Assembly (NCBI GenBank): GCA_964500895.1
Contig: CAZCQP010000006.1
Location: forward strand, 9,211-73,210
Source of the DNA: an uncultured Eubacteriales bacterium
Lineage (GTDB): Bacteria; Bacillota; Clostridia; Lachnospirales; JAISER01
Direction of reading: 5' to 3'
Length of the DNA: 64,000 bases
Within the stretch, counting starts at the first letter, position 1. Each line of letters starts with the position of its first letter. Both the position numbers and the translations under genes were made by a program. Under the pieces are notes generated by a model, which saw only the letters and a program-made list of their open reading frames with translations, was not told where the DNA came from and ran no database searches. Below, in pieces: positions 14,471 through 40,462 of this stretch.

Positions 14471-15994
14471 CTAGTTCAGTTTGCCCACGGCGGCTTCTGC
14501 GGCAGCCAGAACGCTGCCATCGGCCACCAACTGGGCGGCGGCGGCCATGTCTGGGTACAGCACCCGGTCCGAAGCCATGTAGGACACTTTGTTCCGCAAA
14601 GTTTTGTAAGCGGTTTGGCTGCCTGCCCCCAGCTTGGCTGGGTCTGTAAAATCTGCCGCCTGGGATGCGCACAAAAGCTCAATGCCCAACACCTGTTGCA
14701 CGTGCTTTAAAACCTCCCGTGCTTTGCGGGCGGCAATGGTGCCCATGCTCACATGGTCCTCCTGGTTGGCACAGGTGGGGATAGAATCCACACTGGCAGG
14801 GTGTGCCAGCACTTTGTTTTCAGAGACAAGGGCTGCTGCGGCGTACTGGGGAATCATAAAGCCGCAGTTCACGCCTCCTTTTTCCGTTAAAAACGCCGGT
14901 AGGCCACTGAGGGCGGGGTTTAACAGCCGCTCGATGCGCCGCTCGGATACATTGGCGTATTCTGCCATGGCAATCGCCAGTGTATCCATCGCAATGGCCA
15001 CCGGCTGGCCGTGGAAGTTGCCGCCAGAAATGACGGAAGCTTTGTCCCCGGCGAAAATCAGGGGGTTGTCTGTGGCGGCGTTTAGTTCCGCCTCAATCAC
15101 TTCCGTTATATACTGCAAAGCCGGGCGGCTGGCCCCGTGTATTTGGGGAATGCACCGCAGGGAATAGGCATCCTGCACCCGTTTTTCCCCTTGTTTGGTG
15201 GTTAATCCGCTGCCCTGGCACAGTTTTAAAACATTTTCCGCCACGGCCACTTGCCCTTTTTGGTTTCTGGCTTTGTGCAACCGTAGGTCGTAGGCATCCA
15301 CAATGCCTGAAAGGGTTTCCATGGTTAAAGTGCCCACCACGTCTGCGGTTTTGGCTAAAATGTTGGCATCGTATACCGCCAGCGCTGCCGGGCCCATCAT
15401 GGCACACGTACCGTTAATGAGGGCAAGCCCTTCTTTGGCCCTAAGGGCAATGGGGGCAATCCCCGCTTTGGCCAAGGCTTGTCCACCGGGCATCACCGTG
15501 CCTTTGTACTCTGCTTCTCCTTCGCCCATCATCACCAGTGCCATGTGGGCCAATGGGCATAAATCCCCGCTGGCCCCCACAGAGCCTTTTTCGGGAATGA
15601 TGGGATGCACCCCAGCGTTCAACATGTCCACCAATGTTTGTACCACAGACAAGCGAATGCCGGAAAAGCCTTTGGCCAGGGCATTCACCCGCAGCAGCAT
15701 AATCACCCGCACCACTTCGGTGTCAAAGGGTTTGCCCACACCGCAGCAATCGGAATAAATAAGCCGCACTTGCAAATCCACCAGTTCCTCGTCGGAAACA
15801 GCCACGTTGCACAAGCTACCAAAGCCTGTATTTAAACCGTAAATCACGTTACCATCGGCAATAAATTTTTCCACTTGCGCCCGGGATGCATTAATTTTCT
15901 CTTTGCCTTCCGGGGAGACTTCCACCGTGGCCCCTTCCCGGGCAACAGCCACGGTTTGTTCCAGTGTTAAACTTTCTCCGTCCAAGTAAATCAT
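14471..15994 (-). CDS. hutH: histidine ammonia-lyase
   Basis: 507 aa. GSVGASGDL (the MIO-forming ASG motif) and QEDHVSMG. Confidence 0.95.
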   Translation of the reverse strand: MIYLDGESLTLEQTVAVAREGATVEVSPEGKEKINASRAQVEKFIADGNVIYGLNTGFGSLCNVAVSDEELVDLQVRLIYSDCCGVGKPFDTEVVRVIMLLRVNALAKGFSGIRLSVVQTLVDMLNAGVHPIIPEKGSVGASGDLCPLAHMALVMMGEGEAEYKGTVMPGGQALAKAGIAPIALRAKEGLALINGTCAMMGPAALAVYDANILAKTADVVGTLTMETLSGIVDAYDLRLHKARNQKGQVAVAENVLKLCQGSGLTTKQGEKRVQDAYSLRCIPQIHGASRPALQYITEVIEAELNAATDNPLIFAGDKASVISGGNFHGQPVAIAMDTLAIAMAEYANVSERRIERLLNPALSGLPAFLTEKGGVNCGFMIPQYAAAALVSENKVLAHPASVDSIPTCANQEDHVSMGTIAARKAREVLKHVQQVLGIELLCASQAADFTDPAKLGAGSQTAYKTLRNKVSYMASDRVLYPDMAAAAQLVADGSVLAAAEAAVGKLN

Positions 15995-16039
15995 TTAAGT
16001 GCCTCCTTGTGTGGTTGTATTTTGAGTGAAGCTGAACAG

Positions 16040-17293
16040 TTATGCCACAACTTCACCGTTTTTAATCACGGTTTCCACTGGGGAAACCCCCAGCCTGTAA
16101 ACGGCATCTTCAAATTGGGGCACGTGCCAAATTTGCACATCTGCCAGTTTGCCCGGCTCTAAGGTGCCTCGGTCATGGGAAAGCCCCAGTGCTTTAGCAC
16201 CGCCGATGGTGGCAGCCAACAATGCTTCCGCTGGTGTCATGGCGTGGCGGCGGGTGGCCAGCATCATCACAAAGGCCATGGATTCCACCCACACGCCTGG
16301 GTTGCAGTTGGTGCCCAGGGCTAAGGTTAGCCCGGCATCCAACATGGGCCGTGGGTTAAAAGGTTTGGGGTGGTTCACGGCAAAGTCTGTGGTGGGCAGC
16401 ACAACACCGGTGACCCCGGCTTTCACCATCTTTTCAATGGCGGCGGGTGGGGTGTAGTTTAAGTGGTCGGCGGACACCATGCCCATGTCTGCGGCCAAGT
16501 CTGAACCGCCTATGTAGGAATAGCCGTCTGTATGGATTTTAGGCTTTAGCCCCGCATCCAGCCCTGCTTTTAGGATGGTTTCGCATTCTTTGGCATCGTA
16601 GAAGCCATCGTCGCACCAAATGTCGCAAAATACGGCCAGCCCGGAAGCGGCTACGGCAGGGATGGATTCTTTCAGCAGAAGCTCTATGTACTGGGCTTTG
16701 GGCATGTTGGCAGGCCAGGCGTGGGCACCTAAAAAAGTGGGCATAATGTCCACAGGGAAGTTTTTGGCCAGCCGCTGAATCACCCGCAGCTGCTTCATTT
16801 CATCTTCCACATTCAGGCCGTAGCCAGACTTGATTTCAATGGTGGTGGTGCCATTTTGAATCATGGCGGAAAGCCGGGCGGCAGACTGGGCGTACAGCGC
16901 GTCCTCGCTGGCTTCCCTGGTCATGGCCATAGAGGCTTCCAACCCGGTTAAAGGGCAAGCTTTTTGAATGGCTTCCGGGTCGTTGGTGGTAAGCCGAACT
17001 GCATACTCTGCCCGACGGCTTCCCCCAAACACCAGATGGGTGTGGCAGTCTACAAAGCCGGGCACTACCGTTTTACCGGTGGCATCAATCACTTTGGCCA
17101 GTGTGGTATCACACTGTTTGGCCACGGTGTCTTTGCTTCCCACGGCTACAATGCGGTTGCCTTGAATGGCTACGCAGCCCCCTTCAATAATGCCCAGGGG
17201 GTTGCCCGGGGCAGGCACGCAGGTAACCAATTGCCCAGCGTTGGTAATAAGGGTGCCGGCTTGCACTTGTGTGGTTGACGGTGCATTGTCCAT
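16040..17293 (-). CDS. hutI: imidazolonepropionase
   Basis: 417 aa amidohydrolase fold. PGFVDCHTHLVFGG ... HTD ... SADHL. Confidence 0.92.
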   Translation of the reverse strand: MDNAPSTTQVQAGTLITNAGQLVTCVPAPGNPLGIIEGGCVAIQGNRIVAVGSKDTVAKQCDTTLAKVIDATGKTVVPGFVDCHTHLVFGGSRRAEYAVRLTTNDPEAIQKACPLTGLEASMAMTREASEDALYAQSAARLSAMIQNGTTTIEIKSGYGLNVEDEMKQLRVIQRLAKNFPVDIMPTFLGAHAWPANMPKAQYIELLLKESIPAVAASGLAVFCDIWCDDGFYDAKECETILKAGLDAGLKPKIHTDGYSYIGGSDLAADMGMVSADHLNYTPPAAIEKMVKAGVTGVVLPTTDFAVNHPKPFNPRPMLDAGLTLALGTNCNPGVWVESMAFVMMLATRRHAMTPAEALLAATIGGAKALGLSHDRGTLEPGKLADVQIWHVPQFEDAVYRLGVSPVETVIKNGEVVA

Positions 17294-26713: not shown

Positions 26714-27973
26714 TTAGAGAAAGGGCAGCAGTATTTGGCGCTGGGTATTTAAGGTTTCGGCTTGCTTTTCAATTGCTTCCAACGTTTCGGCCAAAGCATA
26801 GGCTTTGGTTGGTTCGCCTTCTGCCAGAAAACCGCTAATGGCTTGCACACAGTGGGTATGCTGCTGTTGGGTTTTGCCATACGCCTTGTGGATGGCGGTG
26901 GCCTTTTGCCGCAGCCGTTTTTTTAAGGGCTTTTGAGCAGAAAGCCCAAACAGGGGCAGTATGTGGCTGACGGCTTGAACCACGGCGGCATCTGTTGCCC
27001 CAGCAGGTATGCTGTAAGGGCCGGTGCACGGGGAAAGCCTTGTTTTGCCCGTGCAGTAATAGCTGTTGGCTCGGCCTTTCTTCGCCATCCGTGCCCCACA
27101 TGCCCTGCAATGAAGCAGCGGGTTCAACAAAGCCGCCTCGGCCTTGGCCTTTGGCTGTGGGCGGCGGGTATTGGCTTTTTCCCATACGTCTGCATGTACA
27201 AGTGCCAAATGGGGGTAAAAATGGCCCCCGTATACCCCTTTGTACAGCGGGTTTTGCAAAAGGCGGTAAATGGCTGCGGGCCGCCAGTTGTTCCCTTTTT
27301 GGGTGGGAATGCCCTGTGCGTTTAAGGTTTTGGCAATTTTGTAGCCCCCCGCCTGTTGATGGGCGGCCATGTAAAAAATGCGGGTAACAACGGCTTCTTC
27401 TTCTGGCAGGGGTGTAAGCAGGTGTACAGCCCGCCCCCGGCGGTTCACTTCCCTGCTTTCCACCAACTGATAACCGTATGGCGGGCTTCCTCCGCGGTAC
27501 TTTCCGGCGGCCACAAGTTGCCGGTGGGCTTCCGATACACGCTGGCTGTTGTTGGCGCTCTCCCCTCCGGCGTGCCAGAAGCGGATGTAGTTCATCAATC
27601 GGTCGCCTGCATCCTCCAGCCGCAAAGGGCCTTCGCATACGCTGTAAAGCGCCACCCCCAGCCCCCACAGCCGGGCGGCCAAAAAAGGCATCTCCTTTTC
27701 CTGACGGCCCAGGCGGTCAAACATAAACACCAGCAGCACATCAAAGCACCCTTGGGATGCATCCCCCAAAAGCCGCTGCATCACCGGGCGCTTGCTTAAG
27801 GGCTTGCGGTAGCCGGAAACCCCTTTTTCTTCATATTCCTCCACCAAAACCCAGCCGGGCTTTTGGTCAATAAAGGCTTGGCAGGATTGGCGCTGCATGG
27901 GCATGTCCAGCTTGTCCAGCTGCCCCAGGGTGGACACCCGGTACAAGCAGGCCACCCGGCGTGTTTTGGTCAT
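26714..27973 (-). CDS. large serine recombinase
   Basis: N-terminal ACLYRVSTLGQ catalytic-Ser motif, a recombinase domain, and a Cys-rich zinc ribbon (CRACGARM ... YYCTG). ATGA overlap with the upstream recombinase. Confidence 0.9.
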   Translation of the reverse strand: MTKTRRVACLYRVSTLGQLDKLDMPMQRQSCQAFIDQKPGWVLVEEYEEKGVSGYRKPLSKRPVMQRLLGDASQGCFDVLLVFMFDRLGRQEKEMPFLAARLWGLGVALYSVCEGPLRLEDAGDRLMNYIRFWHAGGESANNSQRVSEAHRQLVAAGKYRGGSPPYGYQLVESREVNRRGRAVHLLTPLPEEEAVVTRIFYMAAHQQAGGYKIAKTLNAQGIPTQKGNNWRPAAIYRLLQNPLYKGVYGGHFYPHLALVHADVWEKANTRRPQPKAKAEAALLNPLLHCRACGARMAKKGRANSYYCTGKTRLSPCTGPYSIPAGATDAAVVQAVSHILPLFGLSAQKPLKKRLRQKATAIHKAYGKTQQQHTHCVQAISGFLAEGEPTKAYALAETLEAIEKQAETLNTQRQILLPFL

Positions 27974-29574
27974 GGCGGGTCACCTGCCTGTGTTTCCCAG
28001 CCTGGCAGGGGGTGTTTAAAGTAAATGTGCAAATGGCCGGGGGAAACTTCAATGCGTTCAATGAGGGCGGATAGTACCATCTTTTGGGTTTCAGGGGGTG
28101 CGTTCAGCAGTTCCTTTTGCCAATCGGGCGGGAAAGGAACGGGAGCGGAGGGTTCACAGTGACTCTGGGAAGCTTCTTCCTGCACGGCCAAAAGCTGGGC
28201 CTCCTTTTCCTGTATGATGGTGGCCAACTGCCTGGGAGTAAAAGGGCTTTCCCCCAGCAACGCCTTTGCGGTTTCTGCCTGCAAGGCGGCAAGTTCTTTG
28301 TTTAAACGGTTTTGTTCGGATTTTGTTTGCCGGGCTTGGGCTTTTTGTGCCACAACATTTTGGGTCTTGCGTTCCTCTATTTTTGCTTGCACTCGCGTAA
28401 AATCCACCAGGGGCAGACATCCAAAAATGTGGCTCAAGACCACCGGGTCTATTTTGTTTTGGCTGTAGGTGTGCTGGCTGGGGCAGGCAGGCGGGTGACC
28501 GCCGGTGCGGCAGGTGTATTGGGGCTTTGACGCTGTTTTCACTTCCCCTGTTTTTAGCCTCCACCGTTTCTGCCCGTAACGCACCCCCATAGCCTGGCCG
28601 CAGCCCATGCAAAACACAAGCCCGGAAAAAAGCAGGGGGCTTTTGCTCTGGGCTTGCAGCCTAGGGGTAGTTGGCTTTGGGGTGTGTTGTTGACGCAAAG
28701 CCTCTGCCCGTGCCCACACTGCTTCGGAAACAATGGCCAAGTGGGGCAAAGGGGTTAGGGCCGTAATCCAGTCTTTTTCCGGCAAACGCAATTGCCCAGT
28801 GGGTTTGCGCTGCCGTTTGCCGTACACATACCACCCTTTATACACCGGGTTTTTAAGCAGCGATAACACCCCCGCCCCCGTCCACCGGCCCCCTTTTTGA
28901 GTGGGAATGGCTTTTGCATTCAGCCATTGGGCAATTTTCCCCCCGCCCATGGCATAATCTGCCGCCAGCTGGTAAATGCGGCGCACAATAGGGGCTTGGG
29001 TGTCGTCTAAGGCCAGCCCTCGCCGAGGCAAGCCTTGTCTTGTGGCATCTTTTGTCCATACCAGCCGGTAGCCGTAGGGGGGGCTTCCCCCACGGAAAAC
29101 CCCGTCCATGGCCATCTGCTTGTGTTTTTCCCACACCCTTTTACCAGTTTTCTCGCTTTCCCCGCCGGACTGCCAAAACCGCAAATAATTTAAAAGCTTA
29201 TCCGTGCGGTTTTCAATGGTTTGCTGCCCTTCCGTCACGCTCCACACTTCAATGCCCCGGCTCACCAGCCATTCCACCACAAAAGGGGTTTCATCCTCAC
29301 GGCGGCCAAGGCGGTCGAACATAAACACCAAAAGCACATCAAAGCAGCCGTTGCCGGCATCGGCTTTCATCTGCTGCAACACGTCCCGTTCTTCCGCCCG
29401 CTTATGGTAGCCGGACACCCCTTTTTCCGTGTATTCCATAGCCAGTTCCCAGCCTGGGCGGCCTTCGATGAATGCCCGACAAGCCTTTTTTTGCAAAGGA
29501 ATGTCGTTATCTGTCACTTGTTTTTTAGTGGACACCCGGTACAGACAGGCCACTTTTTTAATGGCTTCATCCAT
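27970..29574 (-). CDS. large serine recombinase
   Basis: ACLYRVSTKKQ, LLVFMFDRLGRRE, a zinc ribbon (CMGCGQAM ... YTCRTG) and a coiled-coil C-terminus. Confidence 0.9.
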   Translation of the reverse strand: MDEAIKKVACLYRVSTKKQVTDNDIPLQKKACRAFIEGRPGWELAMEYTEKGVSGYHKRAEERDVLQQMKADAGNGCFDVLLVFMFDRLGRREDETPFVVEWLVSRGIEVWSVTEGQQTIENRTDKLLNYLRFWQSGGESEKTGKRVWEKHKQMAMDGVFRGGSPPYGYRLVWTKDATRQGLPRRGLALDDTQAPIVRRIYQLAADYAMGGGKIAQWLNAKAIPTQKGGRWTGAGVLSLLKNPVYKGWYVYGKRQRKPTGQLRLPEKDWITALTPLPHLAIVSEAVWARAEALRQQHTPKPTTPRLQAQSKSPLLFSGLVFCMGCGQAMGVRYGQKRWRLKTGEVKTASKPQYTCRTGGHPPACPSQHTYSQNKIDPVVLSHIFGCLPLVDFTRVQAKIEERKTQNVVAQKAQARQTKSEQNRLNKELAALQAETAKALLGESPFTPRQLATIIQEKEAQLLAVQEEASQSHCEPSAPVPFPPDWQKELLNAPPETQKMVLSALIERIEVSPGHLHIYFKHPLPGWETQAGDPP

Positions 29575-29928: not shown

Positions 29929-29957
29929 TTGACAATGGGTATAAACGGTTTTATAAT
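29929..29957 (+). promoter_or_regulatory. consensus sigma-A promoter of the glm-hut operon
   Basis: TTGACA (29929-29934), 17-nt spacer, TATAAT (29952-29957). Confidence 0.75.
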
Positions 29958-29974: not shown

Positions 29975-29992
29975 AATTGGTACAGTCCAATT
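29975..29992 (+). promoter_or_regulatory. candidate HutC/NagR-type operator, proximal site
   Basis: AATTGGTACAGTCCAATT has the dyad AATTGG-N6-CCAATT. Lies just downstream of the predicted transcription start. Confidence 0.45.
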
Positions 29993-30024
29993 TGAAGACA
30001 GTAGTGATGATGGAGGAATGCAGG

Positions 30025-30447
30025 ATGGAAAAAACAAAAGGCACCCTGATTATGGGTGTCATTGGCGCAGACGTTCACGCCGTGGGTAACAAGATTTTAG
30101 ACTATGCGTTAACCCAAGCGGGGTTCAACGTCATCAACCTGGGGGTTATGGTGTCTCAAACAGAATTTATTGAGGCCGCCATGGAAGCAGATGCCCATGC
30201 CATTGTGGTATCTTCCCTTTACGGCCACGGCGAAATTGACTGCCGGGGATTGCGCGAAAAATGTGACGAAGCCGGACTTAAAAACATTAAACTTTACGTG
30301 GGCGGTAACCTGGTGGTTGGTGCGGCAGATTTTGAACAAGTGTCTGCCACATTTAAAGCCATGGGTTTTGACAGAGTATACCCGCCCGGCACATTGCCTG
30401 AAGACTGCATTGGCCACTTTGAAGCCGATTTGAGGGATATGGTATGA
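30025..30447 (+). CDS. glmS: glutamate mutase (methylaspartate mutase) sigma subunit, B12-binding
   Basis: [16 protein letters not shown] carries the DxHxxG base-off B12 motif. About 140 aa. GGAGGA SD before the ATG at 30025. Confidence 0.93.
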
Positions 30448-31835
30448 CAAAAACCATGCTGGCGGTGGATTTTGGTTCCACCTTTACAAAGGTGACGGCC
30501 ATAGACATAACCGGGCGGCAGATTTTGGGAGTGGCCAAGTCCTTTACCACTATTGACACCGATGTGTGCCAGGGGTTAAACAATGCCTTGGCCATGCTGA
30601 AAGACCAGTGCGGCACAATAGACTTTGACTACAAGATGGCGTCTTCCAGCGCCGCTGGCGGGCTTAAAATGATTTCATGCGGCTTTGTGCCGGATTTAAC
30701 CACCAAAGCCTCCAAACTGGCAGCCGCCAGCGCCGGGGCAAAGGTGCTGAAAACCTATTCATACGAGCTTTCACCCTATGAATTGGAAGAAATTCAGGCT
30801 TTATCCCCAGACATTATTTTACTTACCGGGGGCATTGACGGGGGCAACAAGGCCGTGCTTTTGCACAACGCCAACATGTTGGCCACGTTGCCCGGGCACT
30901 TTGCCGTTATTGTGGCAGGAAACAAAACCGCCGCCCACCAAGTGGGAGAAATATTAGAAGCGGCGGGTAAAGATGCCATTTTGTGCGAAAACGTGATGCC
31001 CCAGTTCAACAAGCTGAACATCATGCCCGCCAAAACGGCCATTCGCAAGCTATTTATCAAGAACATTATTGAAGCCAAGGGCTTAAACGATGCCCAGGTT
31101 CAAATGTCTGAAAGCATCATCCCCACACCGTTGGCTGTGTTCGAGGCCGCAGAGCTTTTGGCCAAAGGCACAGACAAAACAGCGGGCATGGGAAATTTAA
31201 TGGCCTATGATGTTGGCGGCGCCACCACGGATGTGTATTCCATGGCGGCAGGCACGCCATCCAGAGCCACTGTGGTAATGAAAGGCTTGCCGGAACCTTT
31301 TGCCAAACGAACGGTAGAAGGGGACATTGGGGTGCGGTACAGTATGCCCCATTTAATTGCCGAAGCCACACCGGAAGCCGTGGCAGCCTGGGCGGAAGTT
31401 ACCCCAGAGGAAGTGCTGGCCTGGCAAGACAAATGCCAAAGCGCCATGGACACCGTGCCTCAACCGGGAACCCGGGAAAACCGCATAGACGAAGGTTTGG
31501 CGGCCATGGCGGTGTACATTGCTTCCAATCGGCACTGCGGCACGTATGAATCGGCCTACACCCCTGCCGGGGAAGTGTTCTTGCAAGAAGGCAAAGATTT
31601 AACCAAAGTGGAAGCTATCATCGGGTCTGGGGGCAGCATCATCCACAGCAGCAGACCGGGGGACATTTTAAAGCAATCCCTGTACACCCCGGCATTGCCC
31701 AACGTTTTAAAGCCTGCCCAAGCACGGATGTATCTGGACAAAGACAACATATTTGCCGCCATGGGGCTTTTGGGGCGTATAGACCCAGATGCCGCAGTGG
31801 AAATTATGCTGAAAAACTTTATTGAAGTTCAATAA
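30444..31835 (+). CDS. glmL: glutamate mutase accessory/reactivating protein GlmL (MutL)
   Basis: 463 aa ASKHA-fold-like protein ([11 protein letters not shown] ... DVGGATTDV) between the S and E subunits. ATGA overlap with glmS. Confidence 0.85.
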
Positions 31836-31869
31836 TATAGCGGTTTAACCATAAATATGGGAGGTTACC

Positions 31870-33321
31870 ATGGAATTAAAGAATGAAAAGCTCAGTGATG
31901 ACCTGTTTTATAGCATTCAAAAAGAAGTGCTCACACAGTGGCCCACGGGCAAGGACGTAAACTTTGACGAAGCGGTGCAAATGCAAAAGGCCATTCCTGC
32001 GTCCAAACGCTTCTCTGTGAAGCTGGACAAAGCCAAAGCATCCGGCGACACCCTCATTCAGCCTCGGGCTGGGGTGGCATTGCCAGAAAACCACATCACA
32101 CTGCTTAAATATTTAGAAGACGAGGGCCATGCAGATTTACTGCCCACCACCATCGACAGCTACACCCGCCACAACCGTTACAAAGAAGCAGATGTGGGTA
32201 TGGAAGAATCCCGCAAGCTGAACCGTTCCATGCTGAACGGCTTCCCGGCAGTAAACCACGGTGTGGAGATTTGCCGGAAAGTAACCTCTGCAGTGAAAAG
32301 CCCGGTGCAAGTGCGCCACGGCACACCGGACGCCCGTTTGTTAACAGAAATTTCCGTAGCCGGTGGCTTTACCTCCTATGAAGGCGGCGGTATTTCTTAC
32401 AACATTCCTTACGCCAAAGACCACTCTTTGGAAAAAACCATTTACGACTGGCAATATTGCGACCGCTTGATTGGCATTTACGAAGAAGCCGGGGTGACCA
32501 TTAACCGTGAACCTTTCGGCCCATTAACCGGCACACTGGTACCACCTTGTATCTCTAACAGTGTGGCCATTTTAGAAAGCTTGATGGCTGCCGCTCAAGG
32601 CGTGAAGCACCTGACTGTCGGTTACGGCCAATGCGGTAACTTAATGCAAGACATTGCCGCCATTAAGAGCCTTGAAAAACAAACCAACAGCTACTTGAAA
32701 AAATTTGGCTTTAACGACGTGACCGTCACCACCGTGTTCCATCAATGGATGGGTGGTTTCCCACCAGATGAAGCCAGTGCTTTCGGTGTAATCTCCTGGG
32801 GTGCTGCTGCGGCTGCACTGTCCGGTGCCACCAAAGTTATTGTTAAAACCCCTCATGAAGCTTTGGGTATTCCTACCAAGGAAGCCAACGCTGCTGGCCT
32901 TCGTGCCACCAAGCAAGTGGTGTCCATGCTGAAAGACCAGCTCTACATCAACCTGCAAGAAGTGGAAGCTGAATGCAAAGTGCTGGAAGCCGAAGTGGAT
33001 TGCATCATGCAAAAAACACTGGAATTTGGCAACAACGATGCCGCCATCGGTACGGTGCGTGCCTTCCAGGCAGGTGTTATCGACGTGCCTTTTGCACCCA
33101 GCCGCTACAACGCCGGCAAGTGCTTGCCCGCCCGTGACAACAACGGTGCTGTCCGTTTCTTAGACATCGGCAACCTGCCTTTCTCCAAGGAAATTGCAGA
33201 TTTCCATACAGAAAAACTGCAAGCCCGTGGCAAAGCAGAAAAACGTGCCGTGAGCTTCCAGATGGTTATTGACGACATTTACGCCATTGGCAAAGGCTAC
33301 CTGGTTGGTCGCCCTAAATAA
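31870..33321 (+). CDS. glmE: glutamate mutase epsilon (catalytic) subunit
   Basis: 483 aa. IQPRAGV ... TIDSYTR ... GFPAVNHG ... [10 protein letters not shown]. Confidence 0.92.
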
Positions 33322-33448: not shown

Positions 33449-34690
33449 ATGAAAATTGTAAAATTAGCTTGTTCCGCTGGCAAAACAGGTTTTTTCTTTG
33501 ACGACCAAAAAGCCATTAAAACCGGCGCAAAAGCAGACGGCAACACCTATGTAGGCAACCCGGTAACCCCAGGGTTTACCAAAGTGCGTCAAGCCGGTGA
33601 ATCCATTTCCATTATGCTTGTTTTAGAAGACGGCCAAGTGGCTTATGGCGACTGTGCAGCCGTGCAATACTCTGGTGCAGGCGGCCGTGACCCATTGTTC
33701 CTGGCCCAAGACTTCATTCCCATTATTGAAAAAGAAGTGGCTCCCTTGTTGGTGGGCAAAGAAATCACCACCTTTAAAGAAATGGCAACTGCTGTAGACA
33801 GCTTAAAAGATGCAGACGGCAAACCCATGCACACTGCCATTCGTTACGGCGCAACCCAAGCCATTTTGGATGCAGTGGCTAAAGCCAACCACAAGCTGAT
33901 GGCGCAAGTGGTGGCCGATGAATACGGCTTAACCATGGAAGACACTTTAGTGCCTATCTTCTGCCAATCCGGCGACGACCGTTACGCCAACGTAGACAAA
34001 ATGATTTTAAAAGGCGCCAACGTATTGCCCCACGGTTTGATTAACAACGTGAAAGACAAACTGGGCGAAAACGGCGAAAAACTGGAAGATTACGTGAAAT
34101 GGCTGTCTGAACGCATTCAACAAATCCGCCCGGTGCAAGACTATGCCCCTGTGCTGCACATTGACGTGTACGGCACATTAGGATTGGCTTTCAACAACGA
34201 CTGTGATAAAATTGTGGCTTACCTGGGCAAACTGGAAGCAGCTGCGAAACCTTTCCACCTGCGCATTGAAGGGCCTGTGGACATGGGCGAACGGGAAGCT
34301 CAAGTGGAAGCACTGGCAACCATCACCAAGAAGCTGGAAGAACAAAACATTAACGTGGAAATCGTGGCCGACGAATGGTGCAACACCTACGAAGACGTGG
34401 TCATTTTCACAGACAAAAAAGCAGGGCACATGGCACAAATTAAAACCCCAGACCTTGGCGGCATTAACAACTCTATTGAAGCGGTTATCTACTGCAAGCA
34501 AAACGGCATGGGCGCTTACTTAGGCGGCACCTGCAACGAAACCGAACGGTCCGCTGCTGTGTGTGCCCACATTGCCATGGCAACCCGTCCGGTACAAACA
34601 TTGGCCAAACCCGGCATGGGCGTGGACGAAGGTTTCATGATTGTACACAACGAAATGCAACGCATTCTGGCATTGAAAAACCTCATTTAA
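33449..34690 (+). CDS. mal: methylaspartate ammonia-lyase
   Basis: 413 aa enolase-superfamily protein. FFFDDQKAI ... IKTPDLGG ... GGTCNETE. Confidence 0.92.
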   Translation: MKIVKLACSAGKTGFFFDDQKAIKTGAKADGNTYVGNPVTPGFTKVRQAGESISIMLVLEDGQVAYGDCAAVQYSGAGGRDPLFLAQDFIPIIEKEVAPLLVGKEITTFKEMATAVDSLKDADGKPMHTAIRYGATQAILDAVAKANHKLMAQVVADEYGLTMEDTLVPIFCQSGDDRYANVDKMILKGANVLPHGLINNVKDKLGENGEKLEDYVKWLSERIQQIRPVQDYAPVLHIDVYGTLGLAFNNDCDKIVAYLGKLEAAAKPFHLRIEGPVDMGEREAQVEALATITKKLEEQNINVEIVADEWCNTYEDVVIFTDKKAGHMAQIKTPDLGGINNSIEAVIYCKQNGMGAYLGGTCNETERSAAVCAHIAMATRPVQTLAKPGMGVDEGFMIVHNEMQRILALKNLI

Positions 34691-34709: not shown

Positions 34710-36101
34710 GTGAACGGCTTGGAAGAAATGCGCATTCTTTCTCCAACGGCGATTTTAGGCTACGGCTTTCCTGAAAGCGCCTTTGAAGCGGCCATGGCGC
34801 TGAAACCGCACGTCATTGCGGTGGATGCTGGTTCAACAGACCCGGGCCCATATTATTTAGGTGCAGGCAAGTCCTTTACAGACAGAAACGCCGTAAAGCG
34901 GGATTTAAGCTTAATGATTCCGGCTGCTTTAGAAGCGGGCATTCCTGTTATCATCGGTTCTGCCGGTGGCAGCGGGGCAGACAGCCACTTGAACTGGAAC
35001 GTAGAAATCATTAAAGAAATTGCCACCGAAAAAGGGCTTTCCTTTAAAATGGCTGCCATCAACGCACAAATTGCGCCGGAAACCGTGAAACAAAAACTGG
35101 CCGAAGGCAAAATTGTGCCCCTAGAACCGGCTGAACAAATCACTGAACAAGACATTGAAGCATCCACCAACATTGTGGCCCAAATGGGGCATGAACCTTT
35201 CATCAAAGCGCTGGAAGAAGGGGCACAAGTGATTGTGGCCGGCCGTGCATACGACCCTGCCGTGTTTGCTTCTTTGGCTGTTTCCAAAGGTTATAACCCC
35301 GGCTTGGCCATTCACTTGGGCAAAATTTTGGAATGCGCCGCCATTGCTTCCACACCTGGCAGCGGCAGCGACTGTATGATGGGCTATTTAGGGGAAGATT
35401 ATTTTAAAGTGTTCCCGCTTTCCTCCAACCGGAAGTGCACCCTGCTTTCCGTGGCCGCCCATACCTTGTACGAAAAAAGCAACCCGGTGCGCCTGCCTGG
35501 CCCCGGCGGCATTTTAGACCTGACACAGACCAGCTTCGAGCAATTTTCAGACAACACCGTTATGGTGAAAGGCAGCCGGTTTATCCCCACAGAAGAAGGC
35601 TACTTCGTGAAGCTTGAAGGCGCTAAAAAAGTGGGTTACCGCACAGTTTCCTTTGCCGCTTGCAAAGACCCCATCATGATTGCCCAAATTGACACCATGG
35701 TGGAAGAAATTAAGGCCAAAGTGAAATCCAACTTTGAAAAGTTTGGCATTACGGACTTTTTCTTAGACTTTAAACTTTATGGTAAAAACGGGGTTTTAGG
35801 CATGTTTGAGGGCATGGAAGCAGAAGTTGACCCTGCCGAACTGGGCGTGGTGATTGAAGCTGTGGCACCCACCCAAGAACAAGCCAATACCATTTGCAGC
35901 TTTGCCCGTTCCACCATGCTGCACTTTGGTTATGAAGGCCGGAAGTCCACCGCCGGCAACCTGGCGTTTCCGTTCTCTCCGTCCGACTTTCCTGGCGGCG
36001 TGGTATATGCCTTTAGCATGTACCACTTGATGGCGGTTAATGACCCTTGCGAGTGCTTCCCCATGACCATAGAAGAATGCCGAAAGGGGGAATGGCAATG
36101 A
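34710..36101 (+). CDS. uncharacterised protein, tentatively DUF1446 (AtuA-like) family
   Basis: About 460-aa ORF (start GTG 34710 or ATG 34728), coupled by an ATGA overlap to a DUF4387-like ORF. The pairing is typical of split AtuA-like proteins. The family call rests on memory only. Confidence 0.5.
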   Translation: MNGLEEMRILSPTAILGYGFPESAFEAAMALKPHVIAVDAGSTDPGPYYLGAGKSFTDRNAVKRDLSLMIPAALEAGIPVIIGSAGGSGADSHLNWNVEIIKEIATEKGLSFKMAAINAQIAPETVKQKLAEGKIVPLEPAEQITEQDIEASTNIVAQMGHEPFIKALEEGAQVIVAGRAYDPAVFASLAVSKGYNPGLAIHLGKILECAAIASTPGSGSDCMMGYLGEDYFKVFPLSSNRKCTLLSVAAHTLYEKSNPVRLPGPGGILDLTQTSFEQFSDNTVMVKGSRFIPTEEGYFVKLEGAKKVGYRTVSFAACKDPIMIAQIDTMVEEIKAKVKSNFEKFGITDFFLDFKLYGKNGVLGMFEGMEAEVDPAELGVVIEAVAPTQEQANTICSFARSTMLHFGYEGRKSTAGNLAFPFSPSDFPGGVVYAFSMYHLMAVNDPCECFPMTIEECRKGEWQ

Positions 36102-36409
36102 AGCTCTTTGACATTGCAGACGTTATCCGCAGTAAAAACTCCGGCCCTTACGAATTAACTTTTGATATTATCTTTAAAGATGTTGACATGTTTAAAAAAG
36201 TATGGGATGCTAAAGTGATTAACACCCAAAGCTTTGCTGCCCTGTACCATATTCCTGAAACCGACATCATCAATATCTTGGCTTTTGAACCAGCCAAGGC
36301 CATTAAAATCACCATTAAACGGCCCATCTGCTCCGGTGACTTAGGGGAGCGGGATGTGTACGGCGCACAACAGCATGCCCCATTGATGGGGTTCACATTT
36401 GAACTGTAG
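36098..36409 (+). CDS. DUF4387-like small protein
   Basis: 103 aa. IRSKNSGPYELTFDIIF (RSKN motif) and GERDVYGAQQH. Confidence 0.6.
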   Translation: MKLFDIADVIRSKNSGPYELTFDIIFKDVDMFKKVWDAKVINTQSFAALYHIPETDIINILAFEPAKAIKITIKRPICSGDLGERDVYGAQQHAPLMGFTFEL

Positions 36410-36456
36410 TACCTGTATTTAAAACTTTGATATACACGTGCTAAGGAGTGGTTAAG

Positions 36457-38481
36457 ATGCTTGATAATAACGCCATTGCCAATGCCATGGAGATCAAACT
36501 TGACCCCGTTCTGCCCGAATACCCGGCCTTCCAGCCGGGTATTCGTCGTGCACCGAACAGGGGTTTTCGTTTGTCCAAAGCACAGGCGGAAACTGCTTTA
36601 AAAAATGCCCTGCGTTATTTGCCGGAGGCCCTGCATGAACAAATGGCCCCGGAACTGATGGAAGAACTGGCCACCTATGGCCGCATTTATGCTTACCGGT
36701 TCCGCCCAGAAGGACGGCTCTATGGCAAGCCCATAGACGAATACAAGGGCAACTGCATTGAAGGCAAAGCTTTTCAAGTGATGATTGACAACAACCTAGA
36801 TTTTGAGACAGCACTGTATCCTTATGAACTGGTTACTTATGGTGAAACGGGCAGCGTATGCCAAAACTGGCTGCAATACCGGCTCATTATAAAGTATTTA
36901 GAAGTGATGACCAACCAGCAGACGTTGGTGGTGGAATCTGGCCATCCTTTAGGGCTGTTCCCTTCCCGGCCGGAAGCGCCCCGGGTGATTATCACCAACG
37001 CCCTGATGATTGGCATGTTCGACAACATTGACGACTGGGAAATTGCAGAACAAATGGGTGTGGCCAACTACGGGCAAATGACCGCTGGCGGCTGGATGTA
37101 CATAGGCCCACAAGGCATTGTGCATGGCACTTTTAACACCATTGTGAATGCCGGGCGGCTGAAACTGGGCATTGGCCAGGATGAAGATTTAAAAGGCCAT
37201 TTGTTTGTTACCAGTGGTTTGGGCGGCATGAGCGGTGCGCAACCCAAAGCCATTGAAATTGCAGGCGGCGTGGGCATCATTGCGGAAGTAGATAAATCCC
37301 GCATTGAAACCCGCCACAGCCAAGGCTGGGTGGGCAAAGTGTCTGACGACCTAGGCGAAGTGTTCGCCATGGCCAAGGACGCTTTGGAACAAAAAGTGCC
37401 CTTATCCATCGCATACCACGGCAACATTGTGGATTTGTTGCAGTATGCTGTGGATAACCACATCCATATTGAACTGTTATCCGACCAAACCTCCTGCCAC
37501 AACGTGTATGATGGGGGTTACTGCCCACAAGGGCTTACTTTTGAGCAACGCACGGACATGCTGGCCAAAGACCGGGAACAGTTTAAAAAGAGGGTGGATG
37601 CCTCCCTGCGCACCCACTTTAACTTAATCAAAACACTGACAGAACGGGGTTCTTACTTCTTCGATTACGGCAATTCCTTCTTGAAAGCCATTTTCGATGC
37701 AGGTGTGCAAGAAGTGTCTAAAAATGGGGTAGACGAAAAAGACGGCTTTATCTTCCCATCTTATGTGGAAGATATTTTAGGGCCGGAACTTTTCGATTAC
37801 GGCTACGGGCCTTTCCGCTGGGTGTGCTTAAGCGGTAACCCAGAAGATTTAGCCAAAACAGACCAAGCCGCCATGGATTGCATCGACCCCAACCGTTGCG
37901 GGCAAGACCGGGATAACTACATTTGGATTCGGGATGCCCAAAAGAACAAGCTGGTGGTGGGTACCCAGGCCCGCATTTTGTACCAGGATGCCATTGGCCG
38001 CACCCGCATTGCCTTGAAATTTAATGAAATGATTAAAAACGGCGAAATTGGGCCGGTGATGCTGGGCCGTGACCACCACGACGTAAGCGGCACAGATTCC
38101 CCCTTCCGGGAAACTTCCAACATTAAAGATGGTTCCAACGTGATGGCAGACATGGCCACCCAATGCTTTGCCGGAAATGCAGCCAGAGGCATGAGCTTAA
38201 TAGCGCTGCACAACGGGGGCGGCGTGGGCATTGGCAAGTCCATCAACGGCGGATTTGGCATGGTGCTGGACGGCAGCCACCGGGCTGGAGAAATCATTGC
38301 CTGTGCCATGATGTGGGACGTGATGGGTGGCGTGGCCAGACGCAGCTGGGCCAGGAACCAAAACGCCATCACCGTCAGCGTTGAATATAACAACATGGAA
38401 AAGGGCAAGGGGCACATTACTTTGCCGTACATCCCAAAAGAAAGCCTTGTAGAACAAACTGTGGGTCAATACTTTCAATAA
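36457..38481 (+). CDS. hutU: urocanate hydratase
   Basis: About 675 aa. TYGETGSVCQNW, GLGGMSGAQP and DHHDVSGTDSPFRETSN motifs. AAGGAG SD before the ATG at 36457. Confidence 0.95.
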   Translation: MLDNNAIANAMEIKLDPVLPEYPAFQPGIRRAPNRGFRLSKAQAETALKNALRYLPEALHEQMAPELMEELATYGRIYAYRFRPEGRLYGKPIDEYKGNCIEGKAFQVMIDNNLDFETALYPYELVTYGETGSVCQNWLQYRLIIKYLEVMTNQQTLVVESGHPLGLFPSRPEAPRVIITNALMIGMFDNIDDWEIAEQMGVANYGQMTAGGWMYIGPQGIVHGTFNTIVNAGRLKLGIGQDEDLKGHLFVTSGLGGMSGAQPKAIEIAGGVGIIAEVDKSRIETRHSQGWVGKVSDDLGEVFAMAKDALEQKVPLSIAYHGNIVDLLQYAVDNHIHIELLSDQTSCHNVYDGGYCPQGLTFEQRTDMLAKDREQFKKRVDASLRTHFNLIKTLTERGSYFFDYGNSFLKAIFDAGVQEVSKNGVDEKDGFIFPSYVEDILGPELFDYGYGPFRWVCLSGNPEDLAKTDQAAMDCIDPNRCGQDRDNYIWIRDAQKNKLVVGTQARILYQDAIGRTRIALKFNEMIKNGEIGPVMLGRDHHDVSGTDSPFRETSNIKDGSNVMADMATQCFAGNAARGMSLIALHNGGGVGIGKSINGGFGMVLDGSHRAGEIIACAMMWDVMGGVARRSWARNQNAITVSVEYNNMEKGKGHITLPYIPKESLVEQTVGQYFQ

Positions 38482-38543
38482 TTAAAAAGCTTCGTTCGCC
38501 CCCTGGGCGGACGAAGCTTTTAGACAAGAAAGGAACGAGTTTC

Positions 38544-39449
38544 ATGCCAAAATTAGTGGAATGCATCCCCAATTTCAGCGAAGGCCGGAACAAAGACGTG
38601 ATTGAAGCGCTGGTGGCTTGTGCCAAAAGCGCACCCGGCGTCATTTTGCTGGACCATTCTTCCGACGAAAGCCACAACCGCAGCGTGTTCACCCTTATCG
38701 GTGACCCAGAGAATTTGCAAGAAGCCGTTTTCCGCCTGGTGAAGCTGGCCAGCGAAAAAATAGACATGACCAAGCACACTGGGGAGCACCCCCGCATGGG
38801 TGCCACGGACGTGGTGCCTTTTGTGCCCGTGCAAGGGGTGACCATGGAGGAATGCGTGGCCATGGCCAAAGCAACCGCCCAGCGCATTAACCAGGAACTG
38901 AACATTCCCATCTTCCTGTACGAAGATGCCGCCACCAGCGAAGGCCGCCGGAATTTGGCGGTGGTGCGCAAAGGTCAATTTGAAGGAATGCCTGAAAAAC
39001 TGTTGCAGCCGGAATGGGCGCCGGATTTTGGTGAACGTAAAATTCACCCCACCGCCGGGGTAACGGCTGTTTCTGCCAGAATGCCTTTGGTGGCCTTCAA
39101 CGTGAACTTAAACACTGCCGACTTGTCCATCGCCAACAAAATTGCCAAGGTGGTGCGGGGTTCCAGCGGCGGGTTTAAATACTGCAAAGCCATTGGGGTC
39201 ATGCTGGAAGACCGGAACATTGCCCAAGTATCCATGAACATGGTGAACTACGAGGGCACACCTTTATACCTGGCTTATGAAACCATTCGCATGGAAGCCA
39301 AACGGTATGGTGTGTCCATTCTGGGCAGCGAAATCATTGGGGTAACCCCTGCCAAAGCCCTCATTGACAGTGCCCTGTACTACATGCAGGTGGAAGATTT
39401 TGACTACAACAAGCAAGTGCTGGAAAACCACGTGATTGCCAATTCATGA
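38544..39449 (+). CDS. ftcD: glutamate formimidoyltransferase
   Basis: The LVECIPNFSEGRN N-terminus is characteristic of the family. 301 aa. Confidence 0.92.
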   Translation: MPKLVECIPNFSEGRNKDVIEALVACAKSAPGVILLDHSSDESHNRSVFTLIGDPENLQEAVFRLVKLASEKIDMTKHTGEHPRMGATDVVPFVPVQGVTMEECVAMAKATAQRINQELNIPIFLYEDAATSEGRRNLAVVRKGQFEGMPEKLLQPEWAPDFGERKIHPTAGVTAVSARMPLVAFNVNLNTADLSIANKIAKVVRGSSGGFKYCKAIGVMLEDRNIAQVSMNMVNYEGTPLYLAYETIRMEAKRYGVSILGSEIIGVTPAKALIDSALYYMQVEDFDYNKQVLENHVIANS

Positions 39450-39462
39450 AATGGGTGAAGAA

Positions 39463-40092
39463 ATGAAGCTAACAGAGATGACGGTTTCTCAATTTATAGA
39501 TACCCTTTATTCCGATGCACCTGCCCCTGGTGGCGGCAGCGCGGCGGCATTGTCCGGGGCGCTGGGCATAAGCCTGGTGGCCATGGTAGCCGCCTTAACC
39601 GCCGGAAAAGAGAAGTACAAGGAATATGACGCCTTGATGCAGGATATTCTGGAAAGAAGCCAGGGTTTAAAGGAAAAGCTGACACACGCCATAGACGCAG
39701 ACACAGAAGCTTTTAACGGGGTTAGCGCTGTGTTTGCCATGCCTAAAGCCACAGAGGAAGACAAGGCCAACCGCAAAGCCGCCATGCAGGAAGCGCTGAA
39801 AGAAGCAGCACGGGTGCCCTTGGATGTAATGCATTTAGCGGTAGATGCATTGGGCTTGGCGGAAGCCGCTCTGGGCAAAGCAAACCCCAACGCCGCCAGT
39901 GACTTAGGGGTGGCTGCCATTCAGTTAAAAACAGCCCTTCAAGGGGCGTGGCTGAACGTGTGCATCAATTTATCGGGCATTCAAGACGAAAGTTTTGTGG
40001 CCGATTGCCGGGCGAAAGGGCAAGCTTGCCTGAACCGGGGCGTGGCCTATGCAGACCGGGTGTATGAAGGGATCTTAAGTCAGGTACAATAA
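39463..40092 (+). CDS. fchA: formimidoyltetrahydrofolate cyclodeaminase (cyclodeaminase/cyclohydrolase family)
   Basis: APAPGGGSAAALSGALGISLVAMV motif. The start is uncertain (39436-39463). Confidence 0.85.
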   Translation: MKLTEMTVSQFIDTLYSDAPAPGGGSAAALSGALGISLVAMVAALTAGKEKYKEYDALMQDILERSQGLKEKLTHAIDADTEAFNGVSAVFAMPKATEEDKANRKAAMQEALKEAARVPLDVMHLAVDALGLAEAALGKANPNAASDLGVAAIQLKTALQGAWLNVCINLSGIQDESFVADCRAKGQACLNRGVAYADRVYEGILSQVQ

Positions 40093-40108: not shown

Positions 40109-40462
40109 TTAAAAGACCTTGGGAAACTTTTTCAGGAAAAAGTTTCCCAAACCCTTCAAAAAGCCTTTACCTTAAATGCCGCAAAGCGGCATTTAATAAA
40201 GTTTTTGCACCGCTTTTTTTCAAAAAGCGGTTAGGGTTCGGGGCAAAGCCCCGAGGTTTTTTATCAGCTGTGGATAGCCTCAGATTGTTGACAAAAGACA
40301 TTGGGAAACTTTTTCGGGAAAAAGTTTCCCAAACTCTTCAAAAAGCCTTTACCGTAAATGCCGCAAAGCGGCATTTAATAAAGTTTTTGCACCGCTTTTT
40401 TTAAAAAGCGGTTAGGGTTCGGGGCAAAGCCCCCAGGTTTTTATCAGTTGTCGACAGCCTGG
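40109..40462. repeat. two copies (period about 182 bp) of the multi-hairpin repeat family, flanked by a 10-bp direct repeat
   Basis: Reverse-complement homologue of 25836-26268. GGGCTGCCTT at 40099-40108 is repeated at 40463-40472. Confidence 0.85.

Follow-up and report, generated by a model that had tools for sequence, protein, structure and literature searches.

A DUF1446/DUF4387 gene pair downstream of mal very probably encodes the two-subunit citramalate lyase CmlAB of histidine/glutamate fermentation in a gut Clostridia-class bacterium

Organization of the glm-mal-cml-hut locus

The analysed stretch of DNA (64,000 nucleotides, hereafter the window) carries a single operon with the gene order glmS-glmL-glmE-mal-cmlA-cmlB-hutU-ftcD-fchA (Table 1). 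The names that the initial annotation had given to the flanking genes (glmS, glmL, glmE, mal, hutU, ftcD and fchA, as well as hutH and hutI) were upheld by Pfam and NCBIfam. The two coupled open reading frames that it had placed between mal and hutU were also borne out, and both are intact. The large gene, cmlA, follows mal after 28 nt and shares a stop/start overlap (ATGA, 36098-36101) with the small gene, cmlB, which couples the two translationally.

Table 1 Coordinates of the operon, of further histidine genes in the window and of the mesaconase genes on contig C16 of the same genome
Feature	Position	Strand	Details
cmlA	34719..36101	+	Putative large subunit of the CoA/ACP-independent citramalate lyase, AtuA/DUF1446 family; likely start TTG 34719, 460 aa
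cmlB	36098..36409	+	Putative small subunit, DUF4387; 103 aa; ATGA overlap with cmlA
glmS, glmL, glmE	29977..33321	+	B12-dependent glutamate mutase and reactivating accessory protein; NCBIfam NF002612, NF040745, TIGR01503; Pfam agrees
mal	33449..34690	+	Methylaspartate ammonia-lyase; TIGR01502, E 8.9e-183
hutU, ftcD, fchA	36448..40092	+	Urocanase, glutamate formimidoyltransferase, methenyl-THF cyclohydrolase/cyclodeaminase; Pfam and NCBIfam
hutH, hutI	14471..17293	-	Histidine ammonia-lyase (14471-15994; TIGR01225, E 4e-207), imidazolonepropionase (16040-17293; TIGR01224, E 2e-111)
Promoter before glmS	29929..29957	+	Sigma-70 consensus, TTGACA-17-TATAAT; 12/12 matches
mesAB	C16:31753-32598 and C16:32619-33158		Two-subunit class I Fe-S fumarase/mesaconase; Fumerase and Fumerase_C domains (PF05681, PF05683)

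The large ORF spans positions 34710 to 36101 (+) and encodes 463 aa when read from GTG 34710. TTG 34719 is more likely to be the start, because it yields the N-terminus MEEMRILSP and sits 5 nt after the Shine-Dalgarno sequence GAAGGTGA, within which GTG 34710 itself falls. The same N-terminus was present in at least 40 among the 122 homologues listed. An alternative start, ATG 34728 (457 aa), was the choice of a gene caller.

Scanning of the + strand revealed no convincing terminator before position 40172. Based on this result and the consensus promoter before glmS, the nine genes from glmS to fchA probably form one transcript of approximately 10 kb. The hutU gene (36448-38481), whose product is a long-form urocanase of ~674 aa, probably starts at ATG 36457, with AAGGAG 8 nt upstream, rather than at GTG 36448. 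A second urocanase-like gene is present in the genome (C2:39692-40267). Just upstream of glmS, large serine recombinases (CcrB/XisF-like) and an ORF of ~68 aa were found both in the window (26714-29574, -) and in the closest relative (L088:3564-5322), and the glm-mal-cml module may be located beside or on an integrating element.

Family assignment and orthology of the gene pair

In Pfam, the large ORF matched AtuA (PF07287; E 2.1e-24, 86.5 bits, cut-off 22.8), with a partial match whose best stretch covered residues 63-212, and the small ORF matched DUF4387 (PF14330; E 4.2e-39). Thus, the AtuA/DUF1446-like and DUF4387 families named in the initial annotation were confirmed. No NCBIfam model matched either ORF. 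Additionally, neither Pfam nor NCBIfam detected CitF, CitE or CitD homology in the two ORFs, and no Fumerase or Fumerase_C domain (PF05681, PF05683) was found in either by Pfam. The RSKN and GAQQH motifs previously noticed in the small ORF are indeed present; because the same motifs are found in the C43 paralogue of this genome and in the solved CmlB, they are marks of the family and not of a function.

The large protein matched chain A of PDB 9ERQ/9EVF, "Citramalate lyase, subunit A (cmlA)", over residues 7-453 (E 4.7e-150, 503.5 bits), and the small protein matched 9ERQ_B, "Citramalate lyase, subunit B (cmlB)", over residues 3-102 (E 4.6e-26, 94.2 bits). The entry 9EVF, released in October 2025, is titled "Citramalate lyase - ADP - pyruvate complex". 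An AlphaFold (AF2) model of the large subunit (pLDDT 80.6) aligned to 9EVF_A with a TM of 0.80 (E 2.9e-57, 53% identity), which was the sole fold-search match with E <= 0.001. Beyond 9EVF, every match to this model had a TM <= 0.17 and no second informative structural relative was found; therefore, the fold offers no mechanistic clue.

The known CmlAB (PDB 9ERQ and 9EVF; also the Raoultella planticola enzyme of the Berg laboratory) has the same make-up as the window pair, with an AtuA-family protein of ~456 aa and a DUF4387 protein of ~105 aa. Homology extends over the full length of both chains, with identities of ~53-60% for CmlA and roughly 50% for CmlB, and the predicted fold and the signature residues described below are common to both. 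Unlike the enterobacterial host of the known CmlAB, the host of the window is a Clostridia-class gut anaerobe, and its cmlAB genes are internal to their operon, with hutU-ftcD-fchA following them. Moreover, its mesaconase is a split alpha/beta enzyme encoded at a separate locus, whereas the known CmlAB system has a linked FumD.

The Pseudomonas AtuA, from the acyclic terpene utilisation cluster, is the founder of PF07287, and to our knowledge its function is not established. The window CmlA shares this Pfam family with it through the partial match, and differs in having its small subunit encoded by a separate gene and in its context of glutamate fermentation.

A second AtuA/DUF4387 pair of the genome is located at a contig end (C43:22065-23755; L093:13066-14756), with two ADP-ribosylglycohydrolase-family genes, a PfkB kinase, a LacI regulator and an ABC transporter as neighbours. 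Its large protein is 51% identical to the window CmlA and nearly equals it against 9ERQ_A (458 vs 503.5 bits), so that homology alone does not fix the substrate. The two pairs are told apart by synteny, phylogeny and signature residues.

The neighbourhoods of the best 80 relatives of cmlA in species-representative genomes were surveyed. A cmlB homologue lies downstream in 79 of these loci, and mal lies directly upstream of cmlA in 71, so the conserved linkage to mal that the initial annotation had proposed as a check does exist. The loci belong to Bacillota, Bacteroidota, Spirochaetota, Synergistota, Elusimicrobiota and Thermodesulfobacteriota. In a maximum-likelihood tree, the window CmlA, the solved CmlA and the 80 relatives formed a clade of 82 (SH-aLRT 91, not higher, with the solved CmlA on a long branch of 1.96) apart from four paralogues, namely the genome's own C43 copy and three others.

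Eight positions (T7, A8, F14, I206, S212, G213, S214 and P257) are near-invariant in the Cml clade, common to the solved CmlA and different in every paralogue, and the window protein has all eight. In place of the SGS loop of Cml, the C43 paralogue has TTK. Meanwhile, 56 positions are invariant in the clade and the paralogues together, for example, D33, S36, D38, H87, R173, H196, K199, E202, C203, D215, H245, K295, R394 and N411.

Mesaconase genes and distribution of cmlAB against CitF

The initial annotation had asked whether mesaconase and citramalate lyase are encoded elsewhere in the genome. The mesaconase is: a mesAB pair is present on contig C16 (Table 1). In contrast, no CitF or CitE was found in the genome, whose sole HpcH/HpaI-family protein is an aldolase of the HpaI/GarL type and not CitE. 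In 43 of the 80 loci, the cluster that contains cmlAB also includes orthologues of mesAB after cmlB, and the C16 pair is 53-67% identical to them. On C16, a GntR-type regulator and a 313-aa Walker-A gene stand before mesAB, and murI comes after it; elsewhere, the glm operon starts with the GntR-type regulator, and cmlB is followed by the Walker-A gene. From these positions in other genomes, the C16 locus looks like the detached half of the usual cluster.

The Walker-A protein (GDAGSGKS; C16:30815-31756, L001:533-1474) has no match in Pfam or NCBIfam, and its gene, which is ATGA-coupled to mesA, remained beside the mesaconase genes after the split of the cluster in this genome. Its homologues follow cmlB in 56 of the 80 loci. 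In the survey of Mal genomes described below, they were found near mal in 22 of 30 genomes, comprising all 10 of the Cml type and 12 of the 20 others. A role as a Cml-specific partner was rejected, and the protein appears to be an accessory of the whole pathway, since it accompanies both lyase types.

The CitDEF-type citramalate lyase of Clostridium tetanomorphum and its relatives is a citrate lyase homologue with an ACP and with CitC/CitG/CitX activation. It occupies the same pathway slot as CmlAB and presumably catalyses the same reaction, (S)-citramalate to pyruvate and acetate, although the two enzymes are unrelated in sequence and fold and CmlAB has neither an acyl carrier subunit nor prosthetic-group genes. 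We searched 401 genomes of the window's class, 30 of which encode a true Mal. A high-scoring DUF4387 gene adjoins mal in 10 of these 30. Among the 10 Cml-type genomes, eight lack CitF and none has a mal-linked CitF, whereas 19 of the other 20 Mal genomes have CitF, 16 of them within 10 kb of mal. Thus, in none of these 30 genomes are cmlAB and citF both linked to mal (0/10 vs 16/20). Fisher tests in which the ambiguous genome G221 was counted as Cml-type gave p values of ~4e-6 and ~7e-6. Class I fumarase was found in all 30 Mal genomes, with or without cmlAB. Hence, the anticorrelation with mesaconase that the initial annotation had proposed to look for was not observed; the anticorrelated partner is the CitDEF-type lyase. 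This complementarity with CitF, the class I fumarase of all 30 genomes and the lack of CitF and CitE in the window's genome indicate that cmlAB replaces the CitDEF citramalate lyase and not mesaconase.

G221 was dropped as an eleventh Cml-type genome, because its AtuA/DUF4387 pair is a paralogue (53% identity) with an OYE-type reductase beside it, the pair is on another contig than mal, and the Mal is divergent. The divergent Mal homologue (53% identity; L092, G221:C8:9331-13392) has no glutamate mutase nearby and adjoins a divergent Fe-S hydro-lyase pair. Neither mal-linked Cml nor CitF is present in G221, whose Mal locus may belong to a different ammonia-lyase pathway.

Among the loci and genomes surveyed, the junction with the histidine genes was peculiar to the window. 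No hutU was found within 10 kb of cmlAB in any of the 80 related loci, and in the closest relative (78% identity) the cluster stops at cmlB. Urocanase is encoded in 12 of the 30 Mal genomes, but within the glm-cml operon only in the window's genome; in one CitDEF-type Mal genome it is located ~10 kb from mal. An assembly chimera at the cmlB-hutU junction was ruled out, as contigs from four gut-metagenome runs (one study) cross it. Both the fusion to hut genes and the separate location of the mesaconase module are local peculiarities of minor importance.

Role of CmlAB in histidine and glutamate fermentation

Kronen and Berg (2015) drew attention to a DUF1446 gene that follows mal in Enterobacteriaceae, without settling what becomes of citramalate. 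In E. coli O157:H7, as in other members of this family, the gene occupies the same place as cmlA in the window, directly downstream of mal. More recently, the same laboratory used the cmlAB enzyme of Raoultella planticola for in vivo cleavage of citramalate to pyruvate and acetate: growth on mesaconate depended on Cml, plasmid curing abolished growth, and labelling confirmed the route (bioRxiv 10.64898/2026.01.16.699985). In the literature on DUF4387 and DUF1446, and in that since 2023 on citramalate lyase, we found no primary description of CmlAB. Nevertheless, the view of the pair as uncharacterised no longer holds, since PDB entries 9ERQ/9EVF name CmlA and CmlB and the R. planticola genes have been used in vivo. 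The activity label derives from these PDB titles and the Raoultella work, and for the window orthologue we infer the same activity.

The match to 9ERQ/9EVF, the synteny, the tree, the complementarity with CitF, the lack of CitF and CitE and the presence of mesAB together assign the citramalate-cleaving step to the pair, which very probably is the two-subunit citramalate lyase CmlAB, acting as the final enzyme in a joint fermentation of histidine and glutamate. In the proposed route, HutH, HutU, HutI and FtcD would convert histidine to glutamate, GlmSE, aided by GlmL, would rearrange glutamate to 3-methylaspartate, and Mal would convert this compound to mesaconate. MesAB, a class I Fe-S hydratase, would then add water to mesaconate to give (S)-citramalate, which CmlAB would split straight into pyruvate and acetate; neither the acyl-carrier prosthetic group nor the activation genes on which the CitDEF-type enzyme depends would be needed. 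The proposal of a gap in the methylaspartate pathway that the pair closes is thus upheld. Of the substrates considered in the initial annotation, mesaconate or a neighbouring intermediate, it is the neighbouring one, citramalate, that fits, and not mesaconate, since mesAB is present on C16.

A non-canonical mesaconate-processing enzyme in the place of mesaconase was suggested by the position of the pair directly after mal, the maker of mesaconate, in a window without a mesaconase gene. Against this stand the canonical class I fumarase alpha/beta pair at C16:31753-33158, its 53-67% identity to the mesAB found after cmlB in other loci (43/80), the class I fumarase of all 30 Mal genomes regardless of cmlAB, and a solved homologue that is titled citramalate lyase and was crystallised with pyruvate. 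This reading is now highly improbable and close to refuted. Equally little weight can be given to a mainly synthetic enzyme (pyruvate and acetate to citramalate), or to a pair that regulates or assists Mal or glutamate mutase. In favour of a synthetic role, citramalate cleavage by Cml was suspected to be thermodynamically unfavourable at high acetate, and this implies a reversible reaction (bioRxiv 10.64898/2026.01.16.699985); however, the operon is catabolic (hut genes, mutase and Mal), and the distribution of the pair complements that of the catabolic CitDEF lyase.

The pair might also be an AtuA/DUF4387 lyase for another substrate that lies in the glutamate operon by chance. The family is clearly multifunctional: the C43 pair lies in a LacI/ABC/PfkB/ADP-ribosylglycohydrolase locus, and further pairs are found beside an OYE-type reductase, or beside divergent Fe-S hydro-lyases and an esterase. 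The identity of the window CmlA to the paralogue (51%) also compares with only ~53-60% to the solved CmlA. Yet the order mal-cmlA-cmlB is kept across six phyla, the window protein clusters with the solved CmlA and has its signature residues, and the genome otherwise has no means of cleaving citramalate. We consider this reading unlikely, if somewhat less so than the other two, and retain the citramalate lyase CmlAB as the identity of the pair.

Divergent AtuA/DUF4387 pairs (44-46% identity) were found in three other genomes (L089:7137-11324, G376:C17; L090, G365:C101; and G342:C135). Each is followed by the alpha gene of a divergent class I Fe-S hydro-lyase, an AXE1-type esterase gene and the hydro-lyase beta gene, with an AraC regulator adjoining, and these loci look like a hydratase-plus-lyase module for another substrate. 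We tentatively speculate that AtuA/DUF4387 proteins are a broad, little-explored class of carrier-independent C-C lyases of tertiary hydroxy acids, often placed behind an Fe-S hydro-lyase, with the Cml copy under histidine-operon control here; this is possible but doubtful at present. If it were true, the pair at C43:22065-23755 would belong to this class and act on a new substrate, and so would the pairs of other Clostridia that are fused to divergent class I hydro-lyases.

The enzyme is already described and the locus reveals no new biochemistry, so the main value of the finding is annotation. Since these proteins still go by AtuA and DUF4387 in Pfam and lack an NCBIfam model, automatic reconstructions for gut anaerobes will show the methylaspartate pathway as incomplete. 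Recognition of cmlAB completes the pathway here and in many genomes of Bacteroidota, Bacillota and Spirochaetota with the same cluster, and the either/or pattern of cmlAB and CitDEF provides a simple rule for calling pathway completeness.
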